Origin: Amoebophrya sp. A120
Lineage: Eukaryota > Protista > Dinoflagellata
Length of the DNA stretch: 64,000 nt
Reading direction: 5' to 3'
Assembly: GCA_905178155.1 (NCBI GenBank)
Contig: CAJINV010000001.1
Span: 2,097,904-2,161,903, forward strand
The position numbers and the translations under genes were made by a program. This document shows positions 5,744 to 63,034 of the stretch, one piece after another (the stretch's first letter is position 1; the number at the start of each line of letters is the position of its first letter). Below the pieces are notes generated by a model, which searched no databases, was not told the origin of the DNA, and saw nothing but the letters and a program-made list of their open reading frames with translations.

Positions 5744-8462
5744 CTAGTGCTTTCGTTTTTTTGTCCCGTAGGTGCCAGGATCGTAGTCCTCGTCTTCGGA
5801 GCGCATGTCGACGTCACTCAAATCCTCGTCCATCTCCTCGCTTTCGGGGTCTTCCCCCGGCACAAAGTCGCTGTCCTCCGAGTTATCATCCAGCACCTCG
5901 TGCTGCTGTCGTGCTGCCGCGCTCGCCATCGATTTCGCAGGCATCTGCAGCTCCGGCACCTTGACTCCCCGCTCCTTGAGCGCGGCCAGGAGCGGTGGAC
6001 ACTCCTCTTTCGGGACCTGAGAAAGAATGTACAAAACTTCGGAAGGAGCTGCGAGGCAGTAAGAACTACCTTCAACCGCCTTCAGAATGAATGATCTTCA
6101 CGAAACTAGCGCTATTGACGGCGATCAGAGTTGTGATACAGAATCTTCACACACTTGTCGTGAAGACAATTTGTCGTCGCGTCCCCTCACGATAGGCCAC
6201 CAAGAAGTAGAAACAACTCAAATGAAGAATAATCCGCAACTACACCAGTTCCTATTTTTTATACCTGTGTAAATTCGAAGGTGGCGTCTTTGGTGACAAC
6301 GGACATGACGAGGAAGCGATTGCTGTTGTGCATGTCCGTTCCCCGCTGCAGCTGTATCGCTAATATCCGCGAGTACATGATGTACAGAATCGGTTTGTGA
6401 ATGAACAAAATCGCCTTCTTCAGCGGAAAGATCATGCCGTTGTTGCTCTTGTGGCTGCACATCACGCACTTCCCGCCCCGCGCCGACATGTAGGTGTCCA
6501 ATGCGAGGGTGAGCGTGACGTCCGACAGCATGGTGAATAAACGGGAGAGAAACTCGTACAACAGCAAACTCCTTTTCCCCGTCGTGGGCTCGCGATTCAG
6601 GTTGTGCTTCTTGAGCTCGACCTCCTTAATGTTGTTCAGCTCCATCGCGTCCGGCGTCGGGAGCGACAGCGCCTCGGACTGCATGCAGATGAAGTGGTGC
6701 TCCTGCGACCCGTGGCGAATCGGCATGGAGAGCTGAAACACTAAATGCATGTCGTTCCGCAGCCCCTGTAATACGAACAGTTTCCGCAGCGTGCTGTAGC
6801 GAATCATGAAGTCGCTGCTTTTCCCGTGCAGGCTGAAACCGTTGCTGTGAAACTTCAAACTGCCCCGCAGCGCGGGCACCGCCCACTTGAGGTCCGGCAC
6901 TTCGCAGACGGTCTCGCTCACGTCCATTTCCAGATCCAAGCCCGTGATCATGGCGGACCGGAGCTTCTCCGCGCGGGTCTGGTCTTCAAACTCGTTTGCG
7001 TTTTTCTTCTTGTTGCCGCCACGCTTATTTCTCCCGCCCACGTTGCTCGCGTCGTCGTCACCCGGGTTATGACAATGCGCACCTCCCCCTCATTTGTATA
7101 GCATGAACGGCAATACAAGCATCAGCAAGAGTGCCGGTTTTGCATGACAAAGTTACACTGGAGTGTATTACTATTTGGGCCACCGGAATTTGTCATACAT
7201 GCCAACAGTGCCAAGAGGCAAAGGCTGGATTGGGTATTTTGCATGACAAATGAGGGGAGGGGGAGTTGTGCACTGTCATACGGGTCCAGGTCCCCGTCGC
7301 CGCGCTCGGGCTCGATGTAAAACCGGACTTCCGTCAAAAGTTCGGCGCCGGTGCGAGAACTACCTTGGTCGGCGCGGAGCGCTTCGTTTTCGTCCAATCC
7401 GAACGGGTCTTCCAGCTCGACGTGCACCTCGTTGCGGTTGGGGTTTGTCACCTGGGACACGTCCCGCGCGACCAAATGCAGCACCTGCTCGTCGTTCTCG
7501 TTCCGAAGACTGTACTCCAGCTCGTCATCACCGAGAAGATCTAAATCCCCCCAGTTCCCCCCGCGCGTCGCCAGCAACCGGTTGCTCAGGCCCGCAATCC
7601 GCTTGTTCAGCTTTGGGGAGGGGGAGCGTTCGTCGTCCGAGGAGGAATCACTTTCGTCCTCCTTGGCCAGCAGCTCGTCCGCCAGTAGCGGCGCCGCTTT
7701 GTGAACCATTTCCCGATGAAACACGTGACTACTTAAAATGCTCTCGATGTTCAGGATGTCTTCCTTTTTGAAGCCATCGTAACGGAAAATATTCTTTTTC
7801 GTGACGAACTTCAGCAAAAAGCTCCTGCCCGACTATCAAAACGAAAAATCCCCCCTCCCCATATCGAAAGCGAAATATTGTGATGCTGTATCTGAGTACA
7901 CAAATCGACTTGTAATGCTAGAAGGCCAGGACGAGACGCAGCTGTGGCCTCGGTTGCAGGCAATTTGTCATGCTGTTTCCCACTTCCAGCTGCCCCCTGT
8001 CATGCTGACGATGCAAGGCTTTCCCACGCCAAGCAGCACTCGAGTCCGCATCTTTTCCCTTCTAGCATGACAAAGCTGATTTGTGACCACAAATCTGCAT
8101 CACAAATTTCTAGGTTGAGTATGGAGTGGGGGGATTTTTCACTTTGATGCCGACACCTGGGTCACCTCCGGCCGCTCCAGTAGGTCGCGGAAAAAAAACG
8201 ACTGGATCTTGTTCGTAAGCACGTTTTTGAACCCGCACTGCTCCGGGTTCAGTCGGAACAAGCCCAACGCGCCCGTGGGCACGTCCCGAATCTCGGAGAA
8301 CGCGAGTTTTAACTGTTGTTCCTGCTGATTGATGTTCGCTGGGTTATTGTTGTTTGTCCCGCCGGAGGAAGGGCCTGCTGCACCACTACTCCCGCCGGCG
8401 TTCTTGCCGCCGCCGGTGGAGGATGAAGAGGCTGGGTTCATGTTGGGCCGGTGGGAGGACAT
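5744..8462 (-). CDS. SSRP1: FACT complex subunit SSRP1/Pob3; 4 exons
   Basis: Motifs FRYDGF, RGGNWG, LTEVRFYI, LHGKSSDFMIRY, PIRHGSQEHHF and IFPLKKAILFIHKP, plus the acidic tail DSEDSDFVP. The frame is restored by removing introners 7834-8149 and 7068-7280 and GT-AG intron 6017-6264. Confidence 0.9.
7068..7280. mobile_element. IR introner, family B
   Basis: TATGACA...TGTCATA; TSD CGGGT; highly similar along its length to 22973-23191. Confidence 0.92.
7834..8149. mobile_element. IR introner, family F-like
   Basis: TIR ATCAAAACGAAAAATCCCCCC versus GGGGGGATTTTTCACTTTGAT; TSD CCGAC; ends ATG rather than ATA. Confidence 0.88.
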
Positions 8463-10158: not shown

Positions 10159-13100
10159 TCACGCCGAAGCAGTGATGGCGTTCAACCCCGAGCTCTGCAG
10201 CATCAACTTCTGCACGCACAGCAGGGCTTCCCGGGCCACCTCACGCTGGCTAGCGAAATATCCCTCGGGAACTTCTGGTCACGTTGTGGAAAATCAGGAC
10301 TCAGCAACTATTGAAGATATTTCCAGCCGGACGTCGTTACATGCATATGTTGATCCTCGATCTAGAATCGTGGCGAATGGAGGCTCGCTGCAAGAACCGC
10401 ACATAGCATATTACCGCGGCAAGAACGGGTGGAAACATCTGCAGGCTGTATCGTAGCTACAAATAGACACGACCCGATGGTACGCGTGGTTTAGTTCATC
10501 TAAATCGGTTTGTTTTTTGCCTCTACTTGACCATATGAAGTCCTTCGGGATATGGACATCAGCTCCAGCATTTTGTCCTTAGCCCCACGCGTTGTTGCGA
10601 TGTGCTTACCTACAGAGTCAAATGGAGGAACAGGATTAGGATTTTCTTCGCAATTAGAATTATAGTACTGTTGAGGAGGATGGCTGAGATTTTGCATCGA
10701 AAACAAAAAGGTGAGCATCATCATGCAAAAAACACTAGGCTCAACAATCGTATACCGACGGGATGCAGGCGGGCGAATTCCCCAAGATCGTGGCAGGCGA
10801 CCGCGTATCAACTGTAAAAATGTCTGGGTCTGGAAGAGGGGTGTCATGCTTGTCTGGCATGACAAAAAAGTTTGTGATGCGTGTCCACGACGAGACCCTT
10901 ATGCCTGTCATGCAAAAACGCAGTGTCTCATGCGAAAAACGCAACACAAAGCAGCGCAGATATTTCTCATGCTTGGTTGTGCATTACAGAGCATTCACTA
11001 TTCCCAACACAGCATTACAAGTTTCCAGACCCAGACATTTTTACATTTGATACCGCGAGAGTTTCTGCGTCCTTACTGGTTCGCACAATCACAATATCAC
11101 AGGAAAAAGTGTTAACGTTAACGGAATTTGTGATGCAGTAGTACATCACAAAACTACGTGCCCCCCAACTTTGTCATGTATAGCATGCATACCAGGCAAA
11201 ATTTGTGATGCATATTTGCAATCTATGAAAATCGTTAACATTAACACTTTTTTGTTTGATACACCATCAGGTGGTCGATCACCTTGAAGTTGCTTCCCTC
11301 GCACTTCAAAACCTGCATTTTTGTAAGGCTAAGCAGTGGTGGAGTACTTGCGTAAGATGTAGCTGACGCGGCTTGTTTCCCTTTCGTTTCTGTTGATGTT
11401 GGCATGTTGTACTCTACTGTACTCTTCAGTATTTTCAAAAACATCGCAAATCGAAATCATGTAGTAAGTAAATGAATACGTTTTCGAGCCAGAACTTTTC
11501 ACTGTGGATGAATCCCCACTTGAGCCTGCCGGACATGACCTCCCGTTCGAACCGCTCGAAATTGGTCAAGATCTTGACCTCCGCCTGCAGCGCAGAGATC
11601 AGCTTCTTGATGAGGGCGATCAGCTCCGGGTCCCTCCACTTCTCATATTCCAGGGCGGACACCAGGTTCATCGTCTCCTGCTCCGCCATTTCTGATTTTG
11701 GAAGAAATTTGAATTTCGATGATGATGAAATTGGTGGAGTTGGACAGTTTATACGATTTATTCTGTTCCATTTTTTTTCCATGTTTGTAGCAGGGCCTCC
11801 TGTTGTGTTTGCGCAGACGAGCTGGCGTGAAATAGGTAAATGAACTTCAATTTGTTCCCCTTCAACATCATGATGCGCGACAAGGACCTTAACGACGATC
11901 GGACGATCGTGATAAGGGCTGACAAATGCTGTTCTTTCAAAAACTACCCCTTGAAAACGAAAACAATAAATCCTGTACCTTCACACATGGTCTTCTTCGC
12001 GAGCAGGTTTTCTATTGCCATGAGCGCAATGCGGATCACTTTCTCAGTGCGCACCGTCTTCAAAATCTCGTTGATACTCGAAATCACGCTGGTTGGCATC
12101 TCGACGTCTGTTTTTTTTTTTTGAAAACTATTTTCATTTTGTTTGTGATTGTGAAGATCATGCGTCCTGCGTCTGTATAATGGATCGATGATGTAGATGT
12201 TGTACATCATCTTCGGTCGAGTATTCGCCGGCGAGGAGCAGGAGCGACGGATTCGTCGCACGAAAAACGAAAATCAAAATGAATCAATAAATCAGTACCT
12301 TTGTTAAAGCTCGTGAGCCAGACACACATCAGTGCTTTGTACATGGTCGGAACGCTGCTACTGGAAACGCCACTCAAAATTCGCATCTGCATCGGCGGAA
12401 AAAGGGTCTGAGAGTTTTTTTTAACAGAGACTCTTCAAAATTTGCTAGTTGTCTTTTTTCGATGAAAAGAATTTCGTGAGACAAAGATAAAGAAGTCTCA
12501 GCGTCTACTTCACAAATTTCGATGGCAAAGGCCCGAAAAAAAGCAGGAAAATAAATCCAGTGTTTTTTAGTATACCGATCGCCAATCGGAGCACTTCAGA
12601 AGATTTGCCAAAACGTCGAGTTTACCCGCCTCGGTACCGCTGTATTCCGAGCAGCCAGTATGAAAACGAAAAAAGAACGCGATCGACGGTGCCTAGTCTT
12701 CTTTCATGAACGATGTCGACAGATTAATGGCTATAGCTGGGCGCGATTAAGTGTCTGTCTTCGTATCCATTTTTTTTTTTTTTCCAACATGCACATGCTG
12801 GCGTGACAACTTATGCAACCATATCAATGCTAAATGCAGATGCATGTCAAGAAGATGAAGAAATGAAATCAAATGGTAGTCGCCGACATCTCGGTTCGTG
12901 CACGGCCACGCATGTAAGTACTGAAATGGAAATGCAAATGACCCTCAGGCGCCTGTCGAATTAAGTACAAAGTTCTGTTTTGCTTCCATATGCCTTGACC
13001 TGTGCGGTGGTAAACTTTGCTGGGTATCTGCACATCACGCCGCTGAGCAATATGGGTCTCCCAAGCGTTACATCCTCAACTGTTGCGTGATTTGTCATGC

Positions 13101-13360
13101 AAAATGACCATGAGCCACAAGACGATCAAGCTGCTTCGCATGACAAATTATCGAAGGGCTAAACAACATCTAAGTCCGTGCCTAATTGTAATTTGTGATG
13201 CAAGAGGACTTGCAGTTGAGAATGTAACAGTTGAAAACGCCATAAGCAAGCTGGCCGCCTTGTCGCACATGACCGTGTCGCGAAACTTCATCAGCTCTGC
13301 GAGGTTACTCGTGTTTTCCGGCGTCGCCAAAGCGGCATACAACCCGATAGGACTATGGTA
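10159..13360 (-). CDS. ATP6V1H: V-type proton ATPase subunit H; many exons, 5' start not identified
   Basis: Motifs EKVIRIALMAIENLL, LTNFERFEREVMSGRLKWGFIHSEKFWLEN, TLAVACHDLGEF, GAKDKMLELM and REVAREALLCVQKLM. Stop at 10159-10161. The 5' coordinate is approximate. Confidence 0.85.
10806..11052. mobile_element. IR introner, family C
   Basis: TIR TATCAAcTGTAAAAATGTCTGGGTCTGGAA; TSD CCGCG. Confidence 0.92.
11095..11261. mobile_element. IR introner, family D variant
   Basis: TIR AAAAAGTGTTAAcGTTAACG; TSD CACAA/CACCA. Confidence 0.85.
13051..13244. mobile_element. IR introner, family E
   Basis: Inner TIR GTTACATcCTCAACTG versus CAGTTGAGAATGTAAC; TSD AGCAA; related to 40342-40577. Confidence 0.88.
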
Positions 13361-25493: not shown

Positions 25494-25795
25494 AAATCGA
25501 TAGTATCAGCATCCTTCGCAACACTTGCAGGGACACTACATCAAGCACAAGCGCTGCGTCATAGTACTCTTTTACTCATAATCAAAAACTACTGTACGTC
25601 TAGCTCAATGTCGTCGTCTCGGTCTGCTCGGACTCGGTGGGTGATTCTGAATCACAAGCCCGAGTGATCAAAAGTCGGCAGATCAAGTTGTAGCAGCAAG
25701 AAAAAGGACAATGAGCTAGCAGACAGAGTTCTGATGAAAGAAAAGTTTTTGATGAGCGCCGCACTAGCTTCTTTGACTTTGATCAAAGAATACTT

Positions 25796-26608
25796 CTAGA
25801 TGGCAACGTCGATCGATGTGTCGTCAATGGATTCAAGCAGGGACGTTTCCCGGTCGTCGTCCTCCTTCGACGGTTCCGGTTCGCGCTTATCAAGTGTAAA
25901 AATGTCTGGGTCTGGAAGAATGCGCGATTTGTCATGCTGCTTTTCCATGACCCATAAGGTCTGGAATGCCGGAGCTCGCATGACAGATTCTGCGAGACCT
26001 TTGCAATGCCTATCCTGCATGAGAAACTACCTCCCGACTTGGTCAAAATTGGGCGACTTTTGGTAATCACGCAACACAGATTTTTGCATGCTGCAGATTT
26101 AGCATGACAAGTTGCAATCTTCCAGACCCAGACATGTTTACATTTGATAGCGCTCCCCCTCCTGCAACTTCGCTTGCGCGCTTTGCGCCAGCGCCGTGGC
26201 AGCCGCGAGGTCTGCAGAAGTAGCTGGTGGTGTTCCTGCGGCGCGCTCAGCAGCGTTCATTTTGTCGGTTGTGGTGACAGAAGCTGCTCCTGTCGCAGCT
26301 GCAGCGGCGTCCAGGACGACCGGCGCGCCGGTCCCAGTCAACGCCTTCTCCTCTGCGTCGCCCGTGGCTCCGACCAGGTAGGAAAAGAAGCTGACCATTT
26401 TTTCACCGATGAAGCTCAGCCGGGGCTTGTTGTTGTCTTCGCGGCCCCGGTTCGCGCGGCCCAGAGCGCTGCCGCGGAACCGGGGTCTCTTGCCCACTGT
26501 TCCGGACACGGTGGCGGGCCGCCCGATGAAGCCTTTGGTCGATCCCACACACATCAGAGCGAGGACCATCAGCGTGATCGCGCTCGGACTCCGGACGAGA
26601 ACAACCAT
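25796..26608 (-). CDS. Small hypothetical protein with signal-peptide-like N-terminus
   Basis: N-terminus MVVLVRSPSAITLMVLALMCVGSTKG. Removing introner 25888-26149 gives QEGER-EPEPSKEDDD...VAI-stop. Confidence 0.6.
25888..26149. mobile_element. IR introner, family C
   Basis: TIR containing TGTCTGGGTCTGGAAGA; TSD GCGCT. Confidence 0.92.
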
Positions 26609-39557: not shown

Positions 39558-42500
39558 TTACTTCAAGGATCTTAAATGTTGACCAGCAGCAAAATAGTAT
39601 CGGATTGCGCCGAGGATTTGTCGACCGGTCTTGAGACCACGCAGCACGCGCAACACTCGCTCTACAAGATACCAAGACAGGAGGAGTTTGAGCAGAAACA
39701 CTGTAAACACGCGCATCCTGTTCGAGGGAGCAGCGCCGGTCAGGCCCGAGGACCAGGATCCGCCGTTGAAAGCAGCGAGCCCCAACTCTTGCAGGTCCGC
39801 AAAGGCCCCCCGTAGCACCCACCGCGTCCACCAGGCTCTCACTGGAGCCAAGTATCGAACCGTTTTCAGGAGCACCGGTGCGAGCTTCTTTAAAAAACCC
39901 GTGTCAAACGGCGGCTGAATCGGCGGCAGTAACTCCAACTGCTTCGGCAGCACTTGTCGGTAGCGGAAGAAGCTCCTTTTGTAGCTGAGCTCCTCAAATC
40001 CAAACCGTCCGTGCACGCGCCCGCACCCCGAACGCCGGATGCCGCCGAAGGGCAGATTTTCGTGACCGAAATAGAACAACGGCGCGTTCTGCATCATGGC
40101 GCCCGATTGATGCATTTGTTTTACCGCTGAAATCAGAGCTTCGTCGTAGCCAAACACGTATGTGTTGAGCGGACTGTCGTGGATCTGGTGGATCAGACCC
40201 GCAATCTCGGCGGAAAGCCGTTCCAGCCGGTCGGAGGCAGTCTCGACGGAATTCCGCTCCGTTTCCAAAGCTTGATCGGCCGAAAAATCGTCGTCGTAGA
40301 GGATAACCGGGAGCAACGGGCCAAAAATCTCGTCCTTCAAATATAGGGCTCCCAAGCGTTACATTCTCAACTGTGACATGAATTTGGCATGCAGAAGCAC
40401 CATCCTCATCCACGCGATCAAGCTGCTTCGCATGACAAATTTGCCTAGGGCTAAACGGCAGCTAAATCTGTGCGGCATTTATAATGCTACAGGCGCAATC
40501 TCCCCCCTTTCACTTTTCCCATTCTTGCATCACAAATCCATGTATCAGTTGAGAATGTAACAGTTGAGAACGCCATATCAAAATCGGGTCCTCCATGCTG
40601 GGGCCGATCACGAGGTGGAAGGGAAAGTAGCAGCACGTTGGGTGGTAGAGCAGGGCGGGGGAAGTAGTGGAGCTGGTGTTGTTAGAAGCCGGAGGAGTAC
40701 CACCTGCAGTTACAATTTCCTCTGCAGTCGTGGTTGGAATCACTATTGCGACTTTGCTTGCAGAAGTACTTCTTGCCGACGCGGACGCGGCCACTTCCGT
40801 AGAAGCTTTGCTACTACTGGCTGTCGTTGCGGCCCCTGAGGCCGACGTGTTTGGGTGCAGCTGGACAGTGGTCGCGGATGTAGAGGCAACCGAGGACGCA
40901 GAGGACACTTGGAATGGCTGCTCTCCACCGCCTCCGAAGGAGGACAATGTCGCTTGGCTATTTTCCTTCGAGCTGTTTTTGCTGTTTTTGTTTTCCTTCG
41001 CAGAGGACAACTCCTGGGATAGCGGGTTATCCGTCTTCTCCGAAGGAGTACGACGCTGAGACAAGTCTATAACCTTCCCCGTTGTTGTCTCCAACATCTT
41101 TTGCAGCCTCTTCTGATGGTCTGCGTTAATCACCCGGCCGTAACTGAGACTCGTGTCCAAACCGCTTTTGTTTAACATCTTGAGGTCTTTCGCAAAAAAC
41201 TCGTTCTGCACAATGTCGGTTACACAGGCCACAAAGTCCTCCAGCAAAATATCCTGTGCAAAAGTATCGCACTCGTACTGCAGTCATGCATTACAAATCT
41301 TTTTCTTAGGGCAGATCCCCATTACAAACTTTATTTCTCATGCTGAGGAAATTTGTAATGCATTTATACGAGTGTGATACTTTTGCAGTTCATACAAAAT
41401 CTTCGGCAGCAAAACGTAGTCTGGCGCCATGCAGACCTGCCCGCAGTTCTGCAACTTTTGTTTCAACATGCGCCGCAACAGCGCCTTGAATTTGTCGTCG
41501 TTCTTCGTTTTGTTGTTCTTGCTCCCCGCTGTTGCAGAACAATACACGTCCCCGTCAAAGAGCGCGTCGTGGAGGAAAATGGCGGGATTTTTTCCGCCCA
41601 ACTCCAGCGTGACCGGGGTCAAATTGCTGCACACGTTGCTGTTAGACACGACTTTCCGCGCAACGGCTTCCGACCCGGTGAACAGGATGTGGTCGAAACG
41701 GTTGTACTGCAATAGCGCCTTATGCAATACAAACTTCCTGCACATGTACAAAATGCATCACAAATTTCACGACGCTAGAGCATGCCACTTGTCATGCTGA
41801 ATAGAATAGCGAGAAAGTTTTGTCATGCAGAAACCACATGTGTACTAGAAGTGTACAAGTACAACACGTACAGGAAATTATACCGTGGATATGCCTGCGT
41901 GAAGCTCGCATCCCCCTCGAACACCAGCACCGCCTCGGGGTCAACATATTCGGGCAGCACCCGCAGGAGGAAACTGCTGCTCTGGGCCGCGACTTCGGTT
42001 GGTTTCAGCACGCAGCAGTTCCCGCTCGCAATGGCGGTGATCAGACCGTCTAGTAAGAGGCAGATGGGGTAGTTCCAGGGGGCGATGACCAAAGCCACCC
42101 CCTTATCCTGAGTAAAAACGTACCCACACCAGAGTCAGGATGGGGATTTTGCACCACAAACCTAGGAGCTTTGTGAGTCACGCATGACAAGTTGCAGACC
42201 GTAAGGTAGTGCAAGTTAGCAAGTGCAGCCGCGTCACAGATTCATCTGCTCATGCTGTTCACAGCATCACAAATTCCAAAACACGACTGCCAATGGCTCT
42301 CATGGGGATGCGCATTACAAGTCTTCCTGTCTTTGCAAATCTGCGTCACAACTCTGGTGTGGGTACGTTTTTACTCAGGATACCCCTTCGGCTCAAACTC
42401 GTACCAGGAATTGCCGAACCAATACTCAACTGGCGTTTGGACATGGAACGGTATCCTGGGTAAAAACGTCGCTCCCACCCCGTAGTCAAGTAGTTGGGAA

Positions 42501-43073
42501 CTTAGCAACACAAATCCAGAAGTTTTGGGAGCCACGCATGCCAAGTTGCAGTCCGTAGTGTAGTGCAGGTTTAGGTTAGCAACGGAAATTGCATCACAAA
42601 TCCATCTGCTCATTCTGTTTTCAGCATTACAAATGCCAAAACACGATTGAAAATGCCTCTATTGGGTCTGCGCATTACAAATGTTCAGTTCCTGTAATCG
42701 CAAATCTGCATGACAACTCTGGGTTGGAAATGTTTTTACATAGGATAACCGGCGCCATCCATTCATCCAATTCCGCGATGGCCTTGTTCAGAAAAAGCTG
42801 GACCGCGATGATTTCCCCCGTTAGCGCCTCCACGAAATGCCGCCCGTGGTCAAATTTCAAACAGGCGACGATCTCTCGTTCCTGCTCGGTCAAAAAACGC
42901 TGGAGCTCCTTCAGTTGGGCGATCCGGTAGTCATACGACCGCGTTTTTCCGCTTCGGAACGTCTGGTGTAGGTCGGAAACCCGAGCTTCCATCCGTTTCG
43001 ACTCGGATCGCTGTCGCAGCAGCTTGTGCGGCGACGGTGGCCCGTCCGAGTGGTTGTTCGGTGAGCTGCTCAT
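39558..43073 (-). CDS. ALDH3: Class-3 (fatty) aldehyde dehydrogenase with C-terminal membrane anchor; 6 exons
   Basis: Motifs EPKGVALVIAPWNYP, LKPTE, FTGS, LELGGKNP (catalytic Glu), NCGQVCMAPDY (catalytic Cys), EIFGPLLP and LPFGGIRRSGCG. The frame is restored by removing five introners. Confidence 0.92.
40342..40577. mobile_element. IR introner, family E
   Basis: TIR GTTACATTCTCAACTG; TSD TCAAA; removal restores DPILKDEIFGP. Confidence 0.9.
41250..41394. mobile_element. IR introner, family A
   Basis: TIR TGCAAAAGTATCgCACTCGTA; TSD CAAAA. Confidence 0.9.
41721..41891. mobile_element. IR introner, family H
   Basis: TATGCAAT...GTGGATA; TSD CGCCT/TGCCT; related to 61677-61827; removal restores TQALLQYNRFDHILFTGS. 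Confidence 0.85.
42104..42382. mobile_element. IR introner, family I (young)
   Basis: Perfect 32-bp TIR TATCCTGAGTAAAAACGTACCCACACCAGAGT; TSD CCCCT. Confidence 0.95.
42452..42747. mobile_element. IR introner, family I (older)
   Basis: TATCCTGGGTAAAAAC...GTTTTTACATAGGATA; TSD AACGG/ACCGG; internally similar to 42104-42382. Confidence 0.88.
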
Positions 43074-44133: not shown

Positions 44134-47100
44134 TCAGTAAACATTTAACAACGCTCGAAACTGACCCGGAAAGTCTTTCTCTTCGTTGCATTTCGACAAT
44201 GCAATCCAATCCGCCGCCTCCGCTTCTGTCGTACGAAAATACAGCCGCTGCAACGCCTTCGAAAGCGTTTCTGGGTCGATATCGCTGTAGGAGTCTCCGG
44301 TTGTACGAACTACGCTGGAAGTAGGTGTCGCCGCAGCAGTGTTGTTTGATTTTACAGTAGTTGCGGCTTTCGTCCCAGGAGCTCCTCCTAGGATCGTACT
44401 CGCCGCGCTCGCTAGGTCCCGCGGCGCGGCGTGGTTGACCACGGGATCAAAAATCTCGTCCTATCAACTGTAAAAATGTCTGGGTCTGGAAACTCGTGAT
44501 GCTGGGTGGCGTTTGTTCATGATGAGGCTACAGATGCTGGCTCAGCATGACAAGTTTCTGAGCTCTTAGGTGTTGCCTATTCTGCATGACAAACTGCGCC
44601 TCTGCATCACAGAAAAACGGAGCTCTTGGGTAACGCGCATGACAGATTTAAGAGTCATGCCAGACAAGCATGACAAACATGAATTCTTCCAGACCCAGAC
44701 ATTTTTACAGTTGATACGTCCACAAATTTCCCTAATTCCCCCGGGGAAACAAACGAGTCGGCGCCGGAGAGATCCGCTACCAGCGCCTGGGCGTCCTCGA
44801 CGGAGTAGCCTGCCAGGGCGAGCGGCTCAATCATCCACTCATGCACGTCGGAACCCGTGATCGCGTCTGTGTTGAAGGGATTTCTTTGATCAGATTCAGA
44901 TCTTAGACCACATGTATCGTAAAATTATTCATCAATCCATGGAGAGACGGCCTCATCAACCTAACTGGTGAAAGTTGAAACTCAAACTATTGAGAAGATT
45001 TAAGTGCCATCTTTGTCCCGATCCATGGTTCGGAAGAGCGTGCTGTTGCACAAATCCCGAACCAAATCCGCAAACGGCGAAGGCTGGGGTTTACTTGGCG
45101 CGGATACAACGGCAGCAGTGGAGCTGACAGAGGCTTTGTTTTTTCCTAGGAGGTTGACGCTATTTTTCACGTTCTGCCCTTGTTGTCCTTGTGCTGCAGA
45201 CACTAGCTTGGTGGAGGTCGTCTTCGACGTGTTGCACCGATCATTCAAACCGCTTTCTGAGCCGGCTGGTGATTTCGCGTTTTCCACCGTGGTATCAACT
45301 GTGACGCTGGTCTTTACTCCCTTCTTTTGTTCCACTTCAACGCCGTACTTGTGCTCATCTTTCTTTTCATCGCTGTTGACCTTCTCAAAGTCCAACTTCG
45401 AGACAGAATTCGCGAGTAACGAATTCGCCGAATTTCTGGCACTTACGCGCTTCACCTGTTCCTGCAACGGCGTCTCACTAGTCGACTTCACCGAGCGCCG
45501 GCCTGTGCTGCTCAGTCGAGCGGAGTTCCGCCCTGCACTTCCCTTCGCGGCGCTACTTTCTTTCACGGAGATCCGCGCACTTTGTCGACCGCCGGGTTGA
45601 GCCGGCACGGCGTTCTCCTTTTCAGACTGGATGCTCTCAGTTGCACATGTTGCTGCTCCATCCCCTCCTAACTCCGCAGCGAGGTGGACTGGGGCATCAC
45701 CACCAGCCTCGATGCTCTCGTCTTCCTTCAGAGTACTCAAATCCACTCGAGCGCTCAACCGCGAGGCGGGCATTGGAGGTTCCGGCGTCTTCACGCTTTT
45801 CCTCGGTACTGCACTGCTTGTGTGAGATGAAATCCGCGCTACGGGATTAAAGCTGCCCGTAGAAGTTCCTGCCAACTTCTTGGCACTGTGGCTTGCACTT
45901 TCTACTTCCGGTAGTTCTTTTGAAGCTGCTCCTGTCGACAAATGTCCCTCGGGAATGGCGGGCATAGCGGCTTTAACACCACTTGCAAAGAGTCGCGGGT
46001 TTTTCGGTGTCTGGGAGGATTTTGCTTGCTTCGCCTCCTCCTGTGCTGGACTGGCGGAAGAAACATCGACGTAGTCGGGCTCATATGCACTGGAAAAGTA
46101 TCGCACTCGTAGTAATGGCAGTCCTGCATTGCAAACCAGACTTTCTACCCGAAGTAGCATGACAAGTTGCATTTTTGTACTTGAGAGAATGTGCCATGCA
46201 ATTTTTCACACTAGTACGATACTTTTGCAATGCATAGCTCAACGGCCTTCGACACACGGACCATGGCAGGCGGAATTGACTTTTTTTCTGGGCTATGATC
46301 ATGCTCTCCTTTCTTCTTCGCAAGATCTTCCCCGTCGCCAACAGAAGACTCACCCGCGTTTTGTAGTCCCGTAGCTCCTCCTGCACCGCCCTCTCCTGAG
46401 CCTGGTTTGGCTGTACGACTAGAAGATTCGTCTGTAGCCGACGACAACGGATGCTGAAGCTCGTCTCCTGCACAGGGGGAAATATCCTCCTCTTCTTCCT
46501 CCACAACCGTTAAGAGGTCCAGTTTCGCCCGCTTGCTTTTTCGCGTGTCGAAAGCGGCTTTATTCATTCCACGACTATGCTGTCCCTTTTTCGTCTCGCT
46601 ACCGCTGGTCTCCTCCTCGCCGAAGTCACTCAATGCTTCAGTAGGTGCAGTGAAAGCGCGTGCCAGGCCTGCGCGCTTCTTGTGACCAGGGGCCAGTTCC
46701 TGCGACGATAATTCCGCCTCCTCGTCCTCCTCATATTGGTCGATCGCCCCTAAGTCGTCCGTGGTCGCCGCACGCAGGATGTCCGACGCGGCTTTTTTCG
46801 GTGGCGGATCGGAGGAAACGCGGTTTTTGTCCTTCTGCTTCGCCGTAATCTTCTTGTTGAACAGGCGGATGTGCTTTTGCACCATGGACATGCAAACCGT
46901 TTGGGACTTGCGCTTGTCGATGGCCGCGGCGTCCACCAGCGGAAGTCCCTCGGGGATCGAAGTGAGGGGGAGCTGCTGGTGGGTGGACGAGGGTGTAGTA
47001 GTTGTCGCGGTAGTGGTGGAGTTTTTCTTCGAGGACTTCCTTGTTTTCGCGGGTGTTAGTGCAGAGGATCCACTTGACATTCTGGAAGATGAACTACGGG

Positions 47101-50648: not shown

Positions 50649-51836
50649 GTTAATGTTGGTCGGTAAGTGGAAACTGGAACTGCGTGTGAATAGAGACTGA
50701 TTTCGATTTTCCTCGTTGTAGGTTCAGTATGCAGCAGCTAAGTCGTGCTAAGTTCGTCCGTTGCACACGAAAGTCACGGAGCACCAGGGGCTACGAACTT
50801 CAAACGATATGCGACGGTCCGCGGCGATATCATGCCCTTTATGTCTGTTATTGCGAAATTGGTTGCAGCGACCGGAGGTCGAAAACGAATACGAGTGGGC
50901 GGGTTCGAGGACACAACGATGCTGCTTCATCACGACTTCATTGGAAGCTACGAGGACTTTGCGAGCAGACAAGCCTGCTCCACCTCCTTGCGCAAACGAC
51001 ACATTTGCTTGCAGAGTCCTTGTGACTTTAGACGAGGATGTTGGAGAGACAACATCAATCATATCACCAAGAGCCATGCAGTTGTGCATTGGCCTCCTCC
51101 AGTGCTCGACGACGCCAGTTTTACTTTCTTTCTCTTGTACGACAAGGTGTCGCACTCGTCGGTTTGCGCTCTCCATGATCTTCCTCGTCAGTGTTGTTGC
51201 CAGTACCCTGCAGAGGGCAGATCTCTCTTCCTAAAAGCTCCGCAACAGCGAAATCCTTGCTCCAGCTAGTGTTAAAAGTCAGTTAGTAGCTACAACAGCA
51301 GCTAGAAGTCTTGAGTGTGATAATTGTGAAATTGAAATTCTAGAAGGTGTTAGTTCGTGATGCACGAAGTAACGTTCTTGCAGTCTGTCACTACAAGAGG
51401 TTGTTTACGATTGAAATTGAAATTCTAGTCCTAGTATTCTCATAGGTGATTTTGTTCTGTTGAAATTACTAGTAATTTTGCATTGTCATTTTCGGAGGTT
51501 TTGATCTTGATGTCGGAGCTTCTACTACTCCAACAAATACCGCAGGTGGCTCACTCTCGCCGTGGTTGTAAAGAAACAAGAAGCTGCTTCGTCAAGTCTT
51601 AGTCTTAGAGCGAAACAACTTCTCATCGAGGTAGCCTTTGACGCGCGCGCGCCACAACTAGAACTAATTCTATGCCATGGAAAGAATAATCAAATAAAAA
51701 GCTCACAGAAGCGCTAGTAGGCTTCGAGGAAAGGCGCTTACTTCCAGTACGAGAAATACCGGCTCTGAGCCTTACCGCACCTTCTATCAGGATTTTTAGC
51801 AGCTCTACACAGCACTAGAAACGGATCCTGTCCTGA

Positions 51837-54800: not shown

Positions 54801-57800
54801 TGGTGGTCGCTCTCGCTGTACGCCACCAGCGCCGATTGACAAAGGAAGATTCTTTCGACTCTCTATCCGCGCAGGAGGACCACGACCAGCATCGCCGGCG
54901 GAAGATGAGGGCTGATGTGCAGCGTGAAGGAGCTGCTCTGGACTGCTCGATGACCCACCAACTCCTCCACCGACCGCCAGCTCCTTTCGCTGTTGTTCCT
55001 TTTGCAGCTCCAGTTCTCGACTTTCGGACCGCAGTCGCGATACGTATTGCTGCAGCCGGCTCTGCTCGTCCATCAGTGCTGTTAACGCCGTGTTGTCACT
55101 CGCGATCTTCTGCAATTTCTCCTTGTACTCTTCCCCGGCCTTCTATCCAGGAAGAAAAACCCACCCCCATTCATTTTTTGCATGGCAAACATTATGGAAA
55201 TTATGCATTTTTTGCATGACAAATTGGATGGGGGTGGGTGTTTTTCCCTGGATACCTTCTTCGCTGTCTCCACGTCCTGCGCCAGTTGCTGGTCCCGGAG
55301 CGCGACCAGCTGCGCGGTCTGCAGTTTCAAATTCTGCACCTCCTGGGACAGTCGTTCCTTCTCGTGCCGTTTCTCGTTCATAGTCTCCTCCATCTGCTTC
55401 TTACTCTCACAAATCTCCTGCTTCGCCTCCTCGAGCTCCTTCTGCGTTTTCAGTTGCTCCTCCTTCAGCTTTTCTAACAGCGCCAGTTGGTGTTTCTTGT
55501 CCTCCTTGTACGTTTTCTCCAGCTCTTCCAATTCCTTTTCCCGCTGCTCCACGCGGTTTAGCGTCGCTTCCTCCCGCTGCTTCCACTGCTTCACGAGTTG
55601 CCGCCGCTTCTCCTCCTCGGTCGTGTCCTCGTCGAGTAACAGGCGCAGTGCTTCCTGCTTCCGCTGCACCTTCGCGTCTAACTCTTCAAGCGTTTTCTTC
55701 CGCTCTTTCTTCTCATCCTCAAACTGCTCCCGGAAGGATTTCCTTTCGTCTTCCAGATTTTCCCGGTGCTTTTCCAAATCTCTCTCCCGGTCCTGCAACT
55801 TCTTGTTCAGCGCCTGCAAATCCTCTTTCGCCCGATTCAGATCCTTCTCGACCGATAATTTGCTATTCCTTATTTTCCCCTCGAGTTCCTCTTTTTCGTT
55901 CCGCATAGTTTGAATTTCGGATTTCACCGTGGAAATTTCCGCACTTATTTTGCCCTTTTGCGCCTCCAAATTGTGGATCTCGTTGCTCTTCTTCAACCGC
56001 ACCTCTTCCAGCGCGGCGACGTTCGACTGCGTGTCCATCGCTGCTTGTTTGGCCTCCTCCGCGGCCTGCTGCTTCTTCGTCAAATCTTCCTTCAGCTGCG
56101 TGCGTTTCCGGGAAAGATCCTCGAAATCCCCCTTCGCGGCGGCGAGCTCGACTTTCTTCGAGGACAAATCTCTGTCTAGGTCGTCCACTTGTGTCCAGAT
56201 AGTTGTCCTCTTCCGTTCCAATTCCAAAATCTCCGCACTCAACACTTTCGCTTGGTCCTGCTCGATCTGGTTCCGCAAATCTTCGTGCCGTTTCCGCAAA
56301 TCCGTCATCTCCGCCGTTCTCTTGCTCGCTTCGGTCTCCATCTGGATCTTCTTCGCTTGCAGGTCCTGCAAAGCTGTGGTGTGGCTGAGCTTCTCGATTT
56401 CCAGTTCGCCTAGGGAATTGGACAACTCGATCTTCGAACTTTCCAACCGGTGCAGCTCCTGTTTCAGCTCCACGCCGCGCGCGTGCTTGCGCTCGTTCTC
56501 CGCCACCTGCTGCTCGTACTGACCGGTCAGGGACTCGATGCGCTGCATCAGCACACTCGCCTCGTTTGTCATGGTGGTCACGTCGGCCCGGGCGTTGTCG
56601 CTCTTCTTAGTGTAGGCTTCAATTTCCGCTTCCTGCTCCTCGACGCGAGATTCTTGCTCTTTGACCTGATAGAAAAGAAACGAATGCAACAGTTGTAAGT
56701 AAGTACTTCCGTGTGCTTCTCCTTTTCTGCACCTGCTGTAACCGTAGATGTGCTGGAGAACACAATCTCATTCCCTGTGTCTATTTCATGCAAAAGAAAA
56801 AAAAAGTCATGTAATTGATGCAACACAAAAGAGCGAAACTATACCTTCTCCTTCAGCTCCTCGAAATGCTTCTCCAGCTCTTCGTATTCTTGTTCTAATT
56901 GCTTATTTCCTAATCCGAGTTTGTTTATCCTCTCCTTGGTTTCCTGCTTTTCCGTCTCCAAGTGCTCTAAACTGTATCAAAGGAAAAAAGTGTTACAGTT
57001 ACACATTTGTTGGAATTCTAGCATCACAAGTTGCTCTGCATGGCAAAAGTAATGCGCAGACTATAAGGGAAAACACACGCGAAATGACGCTAGCAAGCTC
57101 AAGCATTTCCTGCATGACAGAGGTTGTCTGTCTTGCTTGTCTTGCGTCAGGGTGTGTAACTGTAACACTTTTTTCTCACGATAAACTGCTCTGCAGCTCC
57201 ACTGCTTCCTTCCGCATTTCCTCCAGCTGATTCTGCTTCTTGTCCAAATTTGCATCAACAGCCGCCATCCGCTCCTTCCGCTGCTCAAACTGCAGCTCAA
57301 ATTCCTCGAATTTGTTTGCTTGCTCCGCTTCAATTTTCTGCTTCTCGAAGGAAATTTCCTGCAGTTTTTCCTGCATTTTTCCCAACTCCTCCTCCGCTTC
57401 CGTTCTTTTCCCATTGATCGCTTCCGTTTCTTCCTTGAATATGCATTGCAAATGTATCTGGGTCTGGAAGAGTGCAAGCTTGTAATGCGCACTTCATAAC
57501 ACAAAAAAGTCTCTCATGCATAGGCAGCAAAAGTTGCCCTCTTTCTGTCACCAAAATGGGGCATTTGTCATGCGGATTCGGCATTGCGCAAGCTTTTCGA
57601 AATCTGTAATGCTAGAGCTTCCATGCTATACCTTCTGTGTCATGCTAAAGCAGCATGACTCTTCCAGACCCAGACATATTTGCATTTGATATTCAATTGG
57701 TGGATTTTATTTTCCTCCTCCGCGTATGCCTCGACCGCCTTCGACAGCATGGCCCGCTGCATCTCCAGCCGTTCTTTCGATTCCGCCGCGGCTTTCTCCC

Positions 57801-59990: not shown

Positions 59991-61202
59991 GTCTTGTTCC
60001 CAGCCACTGCTTCAGCTTTACTTTTCGTGCCAGGGTAGAAAGGGTTCTCCTGTCACATCTGTAGAACCAGTGTGCAGTCGTGGACGGCACTAGTTCTAGC
60101 GGTAGCGCAGTCCGCACTATATAATGAGTTGCGCGCCATCATATTTGCTAGGTAGACTTCTAGGAGCGAGTGACAATGGCAGCACGAAAAATGGCTCCGG
60201 CGAAAATCTTTAGGATGACAATGACTGTAAGTTGCACGACTTACTACAAGAACGTAGCTTCATGTAGTTCTCATCATCGCGCGGCTCGACCGCGGCACTT
60301 TTGTCTAAGTGAAAATTCATGAAGAGTCGGGTTGTTTGATTTTGCCAGTGCAAGTTGCTGGCGGTGCCCTCAGTATTTGCGGCAGCTCCTAGGGGAAGAA
60401 CAATCGAGTGTATCAAAATACAGGCGCGATGAACAAGGCGGCCACAAATCTTCTTCAATCATGCTTTTCAGGACTGGTTGAAGATGAAGATCAACCGAAG
60501 TTCGCGGTTCCGAAGTACTAGGAGCAGAGATTTCTTGTATGTAAGGACGAACGCGACATCAAGCTCAAGCGAAAAAGACAACAAACCTCAGGGATTTCCA
60601 AATCCAATACTGCTCTCACCACACACCTGACTTCGCTTCCTCAACACGAAACAACTTCGGACACAACAAATCGAGATCACACACATTCGAAACACTGGAA
60701 TGTTCTTTGACATAGGTACATCGAACTCGAAGTCGAACCACCACGACAAATAGAACTCAAACTCTCAAAAATCTAGCCCGATGTGAGGAAGCTCCTGCGT
60801 CAAATCTTTTTCATCAAACTTTGTACAGCTGGGGGCAGTTGTGAAACCATTTGTAGTTCGAAGGTTTCAACTCGTGATCATGGCCATGATCAAGGGGTTC
60901 TTTGGAGAAGCTCTATACAAGGGAAACGGTCGGGGGGCCCGCCTCCGTGTTGAGAAGTTGTGCATTATCACTCGACATTGTTGTTCCATTTGCAGCTTCG
61001 GAAACCGAAACGACAAGATCATACAAGTTTTTCTTGGCTTCTATTAATCGTAAACGATGCAGCGAACCTGCAGCTTCGATGTGTTTTCTTTTTTTGGCTT
61101 GAATGTGTATAGATGTGATGAATCTGATAGAAGAAAAAGTCCTAAGTAACCGTATTAGCCTTCATGACCGTGCCGGAGCTGTAGCTGCGAGTCATCTCAG
61201 CC

Positions 61203-63034
61203 TCATTCGATGTCGCTCCCGTCGGCGCGCTCGGTCATGGCGTGCACAGCTTGCTTGGCCCAATCCTTGGCGCTCCAGTCTTTCGGCACTGCACTCATGG
61301 CCAGCACGTGCTTTCGGAAATCGTCTTCCTGGTTCACTATTGGGGCGATCTCCGCTGCCTTCGACCTGGTACATAGTGAAGTTTCCAAAGAAAGCATTTC
61401 AGCAGTTGTTGTGCAGTGCTTCGATCGCGATTATTAGACCACTTAGAACTACTAGAAGCAGCTCCAGAGCAGAAATATCGGAAAATAAACGAAGCGGATT
61501 ATTTTTATCTTTTTCTTCTTGCAAATCATTATCAAAAATGTGATCATCAAGCGGTAGTCACAACATCAAAAAGGTACCATGCCGTGAAGAACTGCGCGAA
61601 CGCAGACTTCAGATTGATGATTTCGCGCTTTGCCGAGCTGCCGATTGCCTCGCTGCTGTAGTTTCCTAGCTCCTTCTATGCAATGTAAATTTCCTGTACA
61701 TGTACAAAATGCATGACAAATTTCGCTACCTTGCAGAGCCCAGCTTGTCATGCTGCACTAGGATTGGAGGCAAGTTTTGTCATGCAGAAACCACATTTGT
61801 ACGTGTACGGGAAATTTACTGTGGATACCTTCAGGGTGGCGTTGGCTTCGTCCACCGGTATTGGCTTGACTAGGGTTTCGTTCGCGAGCTGTGGGTGTTG
61901 GGATTTATTGTACAAAGTGTTTTCTATCTCCTGCACCTCGTGCTTTACCCCCTCGAAATATCGCTCGGTCTCGTCTCTCGCGAGGCGCTCTCTCTGCATC
62001 TCCTGCTGGTACTCCACATAGCCGGATATGGCCAAAAGCTCCTGCCACGTCTGGTCCCGAGCCCGGTCTGTGTCCAGCCTGTCTTCCAGCGAATTTTCAA
62101 AGTCACTTGTTGTTGGAGGCGGGTTCTTTGCTTGATCATGCACTGTTGTGTTACCTGCTGCGGTCGTGTTACTACCATATTTACTTTCAAACACGATGCT
62201 CGTTTGTTCCCCATTGGCCCCCATGACTTCTATTCTCGGTGTCAGACCGACGGAGACCCGGCCTAAATTCATCATCTGCGAGCTTTGCTTGGATGAGGGC
62301 CGGTTCCCAGCCTCGACCATACTGATGCCGGCGTAGAGATCAAAAAACGCGGCGTTGGTGCGCGGAGACGTCGACAATGCATCCGCGTTTTCCGACAAAA
62401 GCTGCCGCTGCACAATCTCCTGCTGCCGGGCAAGTAATTCCGCGATCTGCTTTTGGTGAATCGCCAAAACCTGCTCCAAATCCTCCGTGATTCCTTGCTC
62501 CTGTTGCTCCCCCGGCGCCGCAGTGGTTCGGCTCTGTGCCGTCGCTCGTGATAATTGCTCAGTCTCTCTTTCATCGCTCCGGAAGACCACGTCTTGGTTG
62601 GGTATTTCAGTCGGGGAGGGGAGAAAACTGCTGGGATCGAACGAACCTGGGGGCAGGCCGCCTCCAAATTTATTGTTTTTTACCTCTGAAACCATGGTCG
62701 CCTGTGCCTGCGCGGCGGCCTCGGCCTGCGCAGCCTTCTCGGCTTCCATCGGCGCGAACCGGAGTTCTCGGTTTTTCTCCGCCACCTCCTGCATTCTTGA
62801 CCACTGGTCCTTCCAAAAGCGTCCAACCTCCGTCCTCAAGTCCCGCTCGTTCTCCCGGTGTTTTATCATCTGTGGATTGGATTTTTGTGTTTCTGCTTTC
62901 AACACTTTCAGTTTCAGCATACTGTTCAAATTTTCACGAGAAACCAAGGACGTCGTGGTCGTGTCGCAACAATATGATTGTAGTTCACCAGCACAAAAGA
63001 AAAGTCCATGAAGAAAGAACAAAACATGCCTCAT
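61203..63034 (-). CDS. Hypothetical protein, possible signal peptide, coiled-coil segments
   Basis: 428-aa ORF that continues after introner 61677-61827 (TLK-ELGNYSSE). Probable last exon within 61203-61397. Start uncertain. Confidence 0.55.
61677..61827. mobile_element. IR introner, family H
   Basis: TIR GTAAATTTCCtGTACAtGTACAAA; TSD CCTTC. Confidence 0.9.

Follow-up and report, generated by a model that had tools for sequence, protein, structure and literature searches.

Introners of Amoebophrya sp. A120 have already been published (Farhat et al., 2021, PMC7789003; Gozashti et al., 2025, PMC12130899). In the former account, splice sites are variable relative to the hairpin and putative transposases are reported only in A25; the latter includes an A120 family (family 38) with a "5-bp TSD, TA/TA termini" and homology to Copia/Gypsy coding regions. 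The elements in the 64,000-nt stretch of the A120 assembly that we analyzed (GCA_905178155.1, contig CAJINV010000001.1, positions 2,097,904 to 2,161,903; hereafter the window) are such introners by their TAT-start inverted repeats, A stretch, short direct repeats and non-canonical junctions, and their lengths match published A120 families, e.g., 279, 252-261, 209, and 319-322 bp. The passages of these accounts that deal with A120 introners do not describe an internal motif, pairing at 31-33 bp, uniform removal of the element plus 5 nt, or an N-TAT register. An SSRP1 exon in the window is 100% identical to the Amoebophrya sp. A120 protein and 54% identical to the protein of A25 (GCA_905178165), a strain in which the repeats begin with TTA.

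Transposons of the hAT group make 8-bp target site duplications (TSDs), and CACTA elements have CACT ends and 3-bp duplications. With their TAT ends and 5-bp duplications, the window elements are not members of either group as commonly defined, although their working may be similar. In particular, a short motif placed inside both ends, unevenly and outside the terminal inverted repeat (TIR), recalls the subterminal repeats of hAT elements (Herves, PMC3143072; Ac, Tag1, Tol2), and the account of Herves describes cooperative binding of a short subterminal motif by its transposase (PMC3143072). Unlike in hAT elements, a single motif is common here to 16 or more families whose inner TIRs differ, and it obeys a strict three-turn pair rule. 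IS3EU/GingerRoot elements share TA..TA termini with the window elements but usually have 6-bp instead of 5-bp duplications (PMC10045372), while A120 family 38, as portrayed in PMC12130899, agrees with the window in both termini and duplication length. A literature search found no subterminal motif in IS3EU/GingerRoot, and the word "subterminal" is absent from PMC10045372. Among introns, those of Euglena (PMC12501133) and Fritillaria (PMC11282704) are likewise described as transposon-like, with terminal repeats and non-GT-AG junctions; in them the position of the cut is determined by its constant distance from a terminal signal. The Euglena code, however, is given as terminal pairing, with CDG at +4 to +6 and CHG near the 3′ end (PMC12501133), whereas the window elements end in TAT[C/G] and their nt 4-8 pair poorly between arms; the relevant parts of these two reports mention no internal DNA-phased motif. 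Our motif was not found in print, the matches listed by a literal 9-mer search all being on unrelated subjects.

The motif, GCATBACAA, occurs 55 times in the window (30 on the plus and 25 on the minus strand), compared to 1.79 ± 1.38 expected and at most 6 in 100 dinucleotide shuffles; the variant with A as fifth letter occurs once. All but one of these matches (54 of 55) fall inside 25 TIR elements that together occupy 5,245 bp, or 8.2% of the window, so that density is 10.3 per kb within elements and 0.017 per kb outside. Shuffling the elements alone gave a mean of 0.49 copies and a maximum of 3 (1000 shuffles). At least one exact copy is present in 24 of the 25 elements and at least two in 18, the exception (22973-23191) having only one-mismatch copies; even the 111-bp element at 55144-55254 contains two copies, one of them exact and the other with a single mismatch. 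A motif-blind finder supplied 21 of the elements (24 rows, three dropped as overlapping or weak), which hold 43 matches; the other four (7834, 23256, 30439, 41721; 11 matches) were added by eye, with possible circularity, and their ends were corrected by 1-3 nt.

The elements are short, with TAT…ATA inverted repeats and 5-bp target duplications, and comprise 13 families, A-M (Table 1); being multicopy and present in both orientations as well, they show the traits of MITEs. All 25 left ends are TAT, which was also a criterion of the finder, and a 5-bp duplication (5/5 or 4/5 match) flanks 24 of them. Most have an A-tract near nt 11-15, which is absent from families C and D. A preliminary description of this stretch had claimed that the motif recurs in introners in both orientations, is rare outside them, and persists in the 111-bp element. 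Our counts bear this out, enrichment over a composition-matched background included, and the eleven examples that it quoted are all exact plus-strand matches, although the motif ranges more widely than was proposed, with copies also at 725-3491 and up to 61785. Its view of the families as unrelated holds for their interiors and fails for their ends, which share the TAT, nearly always the duplication, and mostly the A-tract.

Table 1. Introners of the window and the one exact motif match outside them (window positions; nt, positions within the element; TSD, target site duplication; "skipped," absent from transcript contigs, with the length removed).
Position	Strand	Feature	Details
554..769		Family H introner	TSD 5/5; sites nt 47+, 82-, 141+, 172+ (31-bp pair)
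807..1014		Family E introner	TSD 4/5; 32-bp pair
1319..1479		Family B introner	TSD 4/5
3370..3530		Family B introner	TSD 4/5; 31-bp pair
7068..7280		Family C introner, SSRP1 gene	32-bp pair; frame restored by removal with one TSD
7834..8149		Family I introner, SSRP1 gene	Three 32-bp pairs; one end CAT, not TAT; by eye
10806..11052		Family A introner	Eight sites with at most 1 mismatch; host exon unrecognized by gene model used
11095..11261		Family J introner	32-bp pair; host exon unrecognized by gene model used
13051..13244		Family D introner	Three exact sites, no 31-33-bp pair; host exon unrecognized by gene model
17531..17539	-	Sole exact motif copy outside elements	No TIR element recognized around it
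20595..20848		Family K introner	33-bp pair; frame restored by removal with one TSD
22973..23191		Family C introner	One-mismatch sites only; 32-bp pair kept
23256..23412		Family B introner	By eye; frame restored by removal with one TSD
25888..26149		Family A introner	TIR element
30439..30649		Family L introner	Worn, uncertain ends; no clear TSD; six sites with at most 1 mismatch; by eye
40342..40577		Family D introner	Skipped with one TSD (241 nt)
41250..41394		Family B introner	Skipped with one TSD (150 nt)
41721..41891		Family F introner	Skipped with one TSD (176 nt); mismatched TSD constrains cut register; by eye
42104..42382		Family G introner	Five sites, all +; skipped with one TSD (284 nt)
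42452..42747		Family G introner	Six sites, all +; skipped with one TSD (301 nt); mismatched TSD constrains register
44462..44716		Family A introner	Consecutive 33- and 31-bp pairs; skipped with one TSD (260 nt)
46084..46236		Family B introner	31-bp pair; skipped with one TSD (158 nt)
55144..55254		Family M introner, 111 bp	Two sites 34 bp apart; skipped with one TSD (116 nt), GT-AG compatible
56975..57183		Family E introner	Skipped with one TSD (214 nt)
57440..57691		Family A introner, reversed relative to 44462	Four sites, all -; skipped with one TSD (257 nt)
61677..61827		Family F introner	Three exact sites; 32-bp pair

Within the elements, the sites are spaced by rule. Same-strand pairs at 31-33 bp, a range set after viewing the window data, number 25 in 11 of the 13 window families, compared to 3.3 expected; over 3000 randomizations the largest count was 11, and the best 3-nt window anywhere reached 14-16. 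No same-strand spacings of 21-30 bp occur in the window. A larger set of 169 further elements not matched by the search pattern, which shares families with the window (best matches 72-94% identical) and is not evolutionarily independent of it, contains 97 such pairs against 16.0 expected (at most 28 in 500 randomizations), in 14 of 25 families against 7.7 expected. The spacers of paired motifs are unrelated to one another in sequence, and the paired sites are therefore not tandem duplications. Spacer length was shifted by at least 2 nt in only 6 of 86 pairs, compared to 64 of 182 other intervals, with equal substitution rates in the two (0.21 and 0.19); per base, length change was lower for pair spacers in 10 of 12 untied families (p = 0.04). 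Motif number, order, and orientation vary by family. Opposite-strand spacings of 15-18 and 33-35 bp were not significant at the family level in the window and recur in the larger set. Distances from site to element end are broad (30-54 nt), with a mere hint of phasing. Five long elements have 21 sites within 200 bp of an end and 2 in their cargo; the positional bias that the preliminary description had suggested checking is thus a subterminal one, and we dropped the idea, drawn from the scaling of site count with length, that sites tile the whole element.

The motif is also conserved. Its divergence was 0.129, compared to 0.234 in the other interior, 0.299 at its own degenerate middle base, and 0.118 in the TIR, and between nearest neighbors the motif again diverged less (0.047 vs. 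0.167). It is present in at least half of the members of all 16 families, which, together with this conservation, supports the proposal of a shared cis code and places that code under purifying selection. Family 5 (window family E) is an exception, its motif being no better conserved than the rest (0.175 vs. 0.148). Motif density is not lower in elements with TSD mismatches or a reduced TIR score. Motif decay was alike in aged and young copies and in exonic and non-coding copies, both comparisons being of low power: aged copies are not more diverged at neutral sites (0.006, CI -0.012 to 0.024), which leaves the age test powerless, and the "non-coding" copies are mostly probable missed exons. 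Shared-insertion pairs number only four, identical or nearly so.

All 10 elements under read cover, which spans 40200-60199, are cut out with exactly one duplication, and a 5-bp TSD stands at all 10 joints, in contigs that are RNA-like and presumably of RNA origin. This removal is non-canonical, since of the 10 only 55144 permits GT-AG and only 41721 GC-AG. Elsewhere, removing the element plus 5 nt clearly restores the frame at 7068, 7834, 20595, 22973, and 23256, and gives the best, if modest, fit at 11095 and 61677; frame is uninformative at 554, 807, 1319, 3370, 10806, 13051, and 25888, and at 30439 it fits +3 or +6 at the assigned, uncertain coordinates. Target duplications of elements in coding DNA resemble the coding background and are GT/GC-AG compatible in just 16 of 214 cases. 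As these coding-DNA insertions lack a splice consensus, something must recognize each element for splicing, and the motif is among the few universal features. Introns lacking a TIR, a comparison that the preliminary description had called for, are mostly motif-free (exact motif in 0 of 14 putative introns in the window and 5 of 40 in the other assembly), although a few TIR-less GT-AG introns retain the motif lattice (L096, 3845-4020). We looked for RNA-stem selection on the TIR and did not detect it: mismatches show no G-U preference on the RNA strand (195 vs. 185), and own-arm similarity exceeds cross-arm similarity in two of eight families, an outcome that the finder favors. Rfam returned no match in the window.

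Taken together, the evidence points to a double-stranded-DNA site rather than an RNA or snRNA signal. Judging from sequence, GCATBACAA would most likely be a binding site for a shared transposition machinery, a reading to which we give a probability of about 0.6. Like known subterminal protein-binding repeats, the motif is short, repeated, near the ends, and conserved, the binding itself being predicted, and a fixed three-turn spacing with free spacer letters would be a signature of duplex DNA. One protein may bind two sites on the same helix face, separated by three turns, and inverted sites at distances of ~16 and 34 bp would add to these to give a loose lattice. Candidates for such a binder are an integrase-type (IS3EU/Ginger-like) transposase and a shared co-factor; it would gather both element ends before cutting at TAT. 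More tentatively, the inverted ends may themselves direct splicing, the intron beginning one base ahead of TAT and ending four bases past ATA, so that TAT takes up positions +2 to +4 of the GTAT donor common in this host; splicing would then not need the motif. The earlier suggestion that a motif on both strands lets an element work in either orientation is thus not needed, because the inverted ends present the same signals both ways. Neither the window nor the fetched loci yielded a transposase or binding protein in the long-element check, and six candidates of 457-1104 bp (ORFs of two read by eye) included no cognate autonomous element. The inner TIR (nt 15-30) is family-specific and the motif universal, a combination that a shared host factor would explain just as well as a transposase. 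In the viral contigs and prokaryote genomes scanned, we found no evidence of the motif beyond A120-like DNA: the pair-plus-end pattern was absent from the former and gave nine scattered single matches in the latter, none in a TIR element. A three-motif scan of the viral contigs returned 45 rows, all single-strand and nearly all evenly spaced tandem repeats, which we regard as unrelated; a match at L080 was attributed to chance.

A DNA site could also serve the host. A host DNA-binding protein on the motif lattice might mark introners on the chromosome and recruit a U1-less spliceosome during transcription, and transposon lineages would have converged on this motif since insertions lacking the mark would be neither removed nor tolerated in exons. 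We consider this conceivable but unlikely. It would account for a universal motif among differing inner TIRs and unrelated interiors, for junctions without splice consensus, and for the insertion of most large families in both orientations (e.g., 47/33, 16/11, 14/14). It also fits the concentration of elements in modeled coding DNA (214 of 263, in 50% of bases), the 15.5 sites per kb kept by 33 library-homologous gap elements that the strict finder missed, and the U1 that the A120 sections of PMC7789003 give as undetected. Yet orientation-independent signals already come from the inverted ends alone, the cargo of long elements is bare, and ten GT/GC-AG-compatible elements, albeit a small sample, still carry the motif (1.07 vs. 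0.83 exact sites per 100 nt); nor was post-insertion selection seen in the low-power comparisons above. The fuller version, in which introns are defined on DNA by a protein lattice on paired sites that marks tens of thousands of insertions, steers a U1-less spliceosome to scarless removal at any junction or orientation, and perhaps also mobilizes the elements, seems to us similarly doubtful.

Recognition of the motif on RNA, through a protein or a small RNA, or its use in internal intron-defining stems, is improbable. Both orientations occur in 181 of 214 elements, motif bases are predicted to pair more often than the other interior (76% vs. 60%, about half with another motif copy), and the motif presumably resembles the UGCAUG splicing element. 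However, a single-stranded RNA splicing enhancer would be specific to the transcript strand, whereas counts show no bias (281 vs. 300), sense and antisense folding are equal (p = 0.17), and RNA-verified elements carry only the reverse complement in the transcript (42104, 42452, 46084, 55144) or only the forward word (57440). Of the two options put forward in the preliminary description, subterminal DNA-binding sites therefore gain from spacing, symmetry, and position, while RNA or snRNA recognition loses by the single-orientation elements and the GT-AG introns. A functionless leftover of common descent, or of internal duplication in one old element family, would explain the end grammar common to all families, the outer TIR modules that some share, and the interior similarity that remains in five family pairs after motif masking. 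This account is already largely refuted and very improbable, as the rate of divergence at motif letters is one half to one third of that at neighboring letters, with no such slowing at the degenerate middle base, the unrelated spacers are of fixed length, and motif arrangement differs among families. Ciliates excise internal eliminated sequences precisely, leaving one duplication, and similar motif-guided excision from the DNA of the transcribing nucleus would suit a scarless, junction-independent removal in both orientations with a seemingly DNA-based signal. We consider it very unlikely here: the three mismatched duplications on which the cut register rests all agree with a single off-centre register, which coincides with the host GTAT donor, element sequence is joined to exon-like flanks in raw RNA-Seq reads (run X8; runs X8 and X9 comprise element-derived reads only) and at high depth in the RNA-like contigs, and the same contigs also skip ordinary GT-AG introns.

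What is new here is the same-strand pairing at 31-33 bp, a distance held while the spacer letters drift, along with motif conservation close to that of the terminal repeats, subterminal placement in long elements, the lack of transcript-strand bias, and scarcity in ordinary GT-AG introns. Two questions are stated as open in PMC7789003, namely how Amoebophrya removes the >60% of its introns that lack GT-AG without a detectable U1 and what moves introners that have no known transposase. A universal 9-mer with a 31-33 bp rule can serve as a defined bait for isolating the responsible protein by pull-down, and as a marker for locating and dating introners with eroded ends. The N-TAT…ATA-NNNN register that we propose is a testable splice rule, and would give a reason why TAT-ended transposons could become introns where GTAT is the common donor. 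Should the binder prove to be only the transposase, the motif would be a helpful detail of a conventional kind; a link to splicing would make it a novel mode of intron definition. The motif thus offers a handle on introner spread and possibly on introner removal.

The paired DNA motif GCATBACAA (B = G, C or T, either strand) is a real and strongly enriched feature of a known introner class. It occurs 55 times in the window against 1.79 expected, and 54 of these matches fall in 25 elements that make up 8.2% of the window, bearing out the recurrence within introners claimed in a preliminary description. Of these elements, 21 were defined by a motif-blind finder based on TAT ends, target duplications (TSDs) and terminal inverted repeats (TIRs), and account for 43 matches; four were added by eye. 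Shuffling the element sequences alone gave 0.49 matches. Every element begins with TAT; a 5-bp duplication flanks 24 of the 25, and an A-tract near nt 11-15 is found in most. BLAST grouping divided them into 13 families, which the preliminary description had called unrelated. This holds for their interiors but not for their ends: in a larger set, motif-masked interiors of different families aligned in five family pairs only, while the ends are alike, so the families are unrelated inside and share one end grammar. Of the patterns tried, GCATnACAA (together with the one-base-shifted TGCAnnACAA) was the sole 8-letter word to occur in half or more of the members of every family for which at least two members were usable, 16 families in total. 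One non-TAT end (TAC, TGT, CAT, TAG or others) with a perfect 5-bp duplication was seen in 23 of 396 copies from the metagenome assembly JACKZZ01.

The minus-strand exon at 6262-7065 matches a 643-aa SSRP1 labelled Amoebophrya sp. A120 at 100% identity, compared with 54% for the A25 protein. Further elements came from metagenome contigs scanned with a pair-plus-end pattern, which returned at least 162 stretches, stored as 160 loci; among the matches listed, all but one derived from a single assembly, JACKZZ01. These loci contain the same families as the window and yielded 314 elements (2 on reversed control sequence), from which 145 pattern-matching elements were set aside and 169 kept for tests. 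The exact motif was present in 151 of these 169. Outside strict elements there are 338 exact matches. Of these, 278 adjoin library-homologous DNA and 12 are close to the edge of a locus; the remaining 48 include several in worn elements.

The copies also follow a spacing rule, a feature absent from the preliminary description. With at most one mismatch, 25 same-strand pairs in the window lie 31-33 bp apart, in 18 of the 25 elements and 11 of the 13 families; three turns of B-DNA measure 31.5 bp. Random placement of the sites gave 3.3 such pairs and never more than 11 over 3000 runs; with the 3-nt window free to sit at any distance, randomised sites reached 14-16 pairs. No same-strand pairs at 21-30 bp were found in the window elements. 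In the 169 further elements, 97 pairs had the 31-33 bp spacing, where random placement gave 16.0 and at most 28 in 500 runs. These pairs fall in 82 elements belonging to 14 of 25 families. Another 20 same-strand pairs lie at 21-30 bp, and opposite-strand spacings peaked near 16, 34, 47-49 and 65. Spacers between paired copies are unrelated to one another or to the flanks. When nearest relatives were compared, a length change of at least 2 nt was found in 6 of 86 paired distances and in 64 of 182 other intervals, with letters changing at equal rates in both; counted per base, 10 of 12 untied families show this difference in stability.

Motif letters diverged from the family majority by 0.129, versus 0.234 for the other interior, 0.299 for the motif's degenerate middle base and 0.118 for TIR nt 4-25, a figure favoured by the finder. 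Nearest relatives gave 0.047 for the motif versus 0.167 for the other interior. The preliminary description had suggested looking for positional bias relative to the ends, and five long elements (457-1104 bp) have 21 sites no farther than 200 bp from an end, as against 2 in cargo. In long TAT-ended elements the ends bear the motif and the cargo enclosed by them, GC-rich or A-rich repeats, is unrelated, so such ends can carry passenger DNA.

Contigs from read runs X1 and X4, presumed by guess to be RNA, skip all ten elements in 40200-60199, each time by the element plus exactly 5 nt. An aldehyde-dehydrogenase-like gene (39600-43080, named by eye from its translation) has five introners inside a 2.4-kb stretch; they represent four families, and a single transcript contig skips them all. 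Removal of the SSRP1 element at 7834-8149 leaves a junction that fits both orthologues by eye, with no extra residues. In three elements with mismatched duplications, the retained letters are compatible with one register only; from these three junctions we infer that the intron runs from one base before TAT to four bases after ATA, a register under which the element at 55144 has GT-AG ends. GTAT opens each of the three RNA-verified GT-AG introns and is the most frequent donor of modelled TIR-less introns, where it accounts for 16 of the 50 gaps (out of 54) with a frame-keeping GT-AG; AT follows 4.8% of interior GTs. This donor is either the consensus of the host or a remnant of old introners.

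Coordinates of introners, introns, transcript gaps and non-coding duplications (window positions or JACKZZ01 loci)
Feature	Sequence	Position	Remark
One-end-variant element	window	7834-8149	in SSRP1
One-end-variant copy (example)	L046	2872-3123	perfect TSD
One-end-variant copy (example)	L055	3400-3667	perfect TSD
One-end-variant copy (example)	L072	2613-2764	perfect TSD
Long cargo-carrying element	L055	505-1608	
Long cargo-carrying element	L061	294-1127	
Long cargo-carrying element	L096	3143-3773	
Long cargo-carrying element	L112	2348-2843	
RNA-verified GT-AG intron	window	56666-56844	GTAT start
RNA-verified GT-AG intron	window	58261-58429	GTAT start
RNA-verified GT-AG intron	window	59057-59504	GTAT start
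TIR-less transcript-contig gap	window	~44867-45007	GC-AG at inferred ends
TIR-less transcript-contig gap	window	~47128-47283	no clear GT-AG at printed ends
Non-coding duplication	window	16118-16255 and 25350-25493	144 nt at 91%
Non-coding duplication	window	16076-16115 and 17099-17138	40 nt at 97.5%

Several further repeats were noted. A palindromic satellite at 14100-15050, in a long non-coding stretch, has periods of 18, 94 and 158 bp and is made of two units, each self-complementary; it lacks GCATBACAA and could be a centromere-like or origin-like array. The 144-nt duplication contains a short hairpin, with a telomere-like word after it at about 16258. A 324-nt modelled intron (L093 1996-2319) has a strong inverted repeat and a telomere-like run, no motif and no library homology, and is probably a different element class. 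Two loci share a 268-nt introner at 100% identity (L058 989-1257, L069 3000-3268); the two gene copies that host it are about 90% similar, and their GT-AG intron has diverged strongly. This reflects either assembly collapse or gene conversion.

We considered whether the motif acts in DNA or RNA. A coding model, seeded with minus-strand ORFs and with all its coding segments in the window on the minus strand, recovers the RNA-verified introns and places 214 of 263 elements in coding DNA. An RNA signal is very unlikely. The word is forward 446 and reversed 511 times across all 214 coding elements (p=0.04, pattern-selected elements included), and a small strand bias is present among interior changes (537 vs 466, p=0.03). 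Against an RNA signal, the 149 non-pattern elements gave 281 forward and 300 reversed words, RNA-verified elements have the reversed word alone in four and the forward word alone in one, most large families insert in both directions, sense and antisense strands fold alike, TIR mismatches in the RNA strand are G-U 195 and A-C 185, and TIR nt 4-8 pair poorly. Relative to the host gene, two families are confined to a single orientation, one including the window elements at 807 and 56975 (9/0), the other those at 41721 and 61677 (5/0). The comparison with GT-AG introns and non-coding DNA that the preliminary description had called for also favours the elements: one-mismatch density is about 17 per kb in elements, versus 1.0 (window) and 3.4 (JACKZZ01) in TIR-less modelled introns, 1.05 and 1.55 in long non-coding DNA, and 0.3 and 0.7 in coding DNA. 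Exact motifs occur in 0 of 14 and 5 of 40 TIR-less introns, a few of which look like old introners turned GT-AG with the lattice kept (e.g., L096 3845-4020). With no consistent transcript-strand preference, equal folding and scarcity in TIR-less introns, the motif acts like a site in double-stranded DNA that goes with the elements rather than with introns in general.

On the plain reading, the copies would be subterminal binding sites for the mobilising machinery, and we put the probability that they serve mobilisation only at roughly 0.6. Subterminal binding sites of this kind have been shown in the hAT element Herves (PMC3143072). No protein binding the motif was found, and six longer candidate elements lacked an evident transposase. 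A transposase alone sits uneasily with a universal motif beside a family-specific inner TIR, and thousands of consensus-free exonic insertions must be recognised by something; element duplications resemble coding background, and GT/GC-AG is permitted at just 16 of 214 elements. A DNA-bound host mark on the motif that also guides splicing is a tentative, rather unlikely alternative. Marginally less probable than an RNA signal is a functionless relic, the conservation contrast between motif and interior being seen in 9 of 10 families. Removal of the elements by DNA excision is the least probable of all; ordinary GT-AG introns are skipped in X1 and X4 too.

Among published systems, as far as the available text of PMC10045372 goes, IS3EU/GingerRoot resembles these introners in its TA..TA ends but usually has 6-bp duplications, unlike the 5 bp here. 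Matching ends are found in A120 introner family 38, for which PMC12130899 gives '5-bp TSD, TA/TA termini' and homology to Copia/Gypsy coding regions. The motif was not found in open-licence literature or supplement text; the repeat-logo figures of PMC7789003 could show it. The paired motif is apparently an undescribed form of subterminal repeats. It makes testable two questions that the consulted part of PMC7789003 states as open, namely how non-GT-AG introns are removed and what mobilises introners. The putative link to splicing would, if true, make the finding exceptional.
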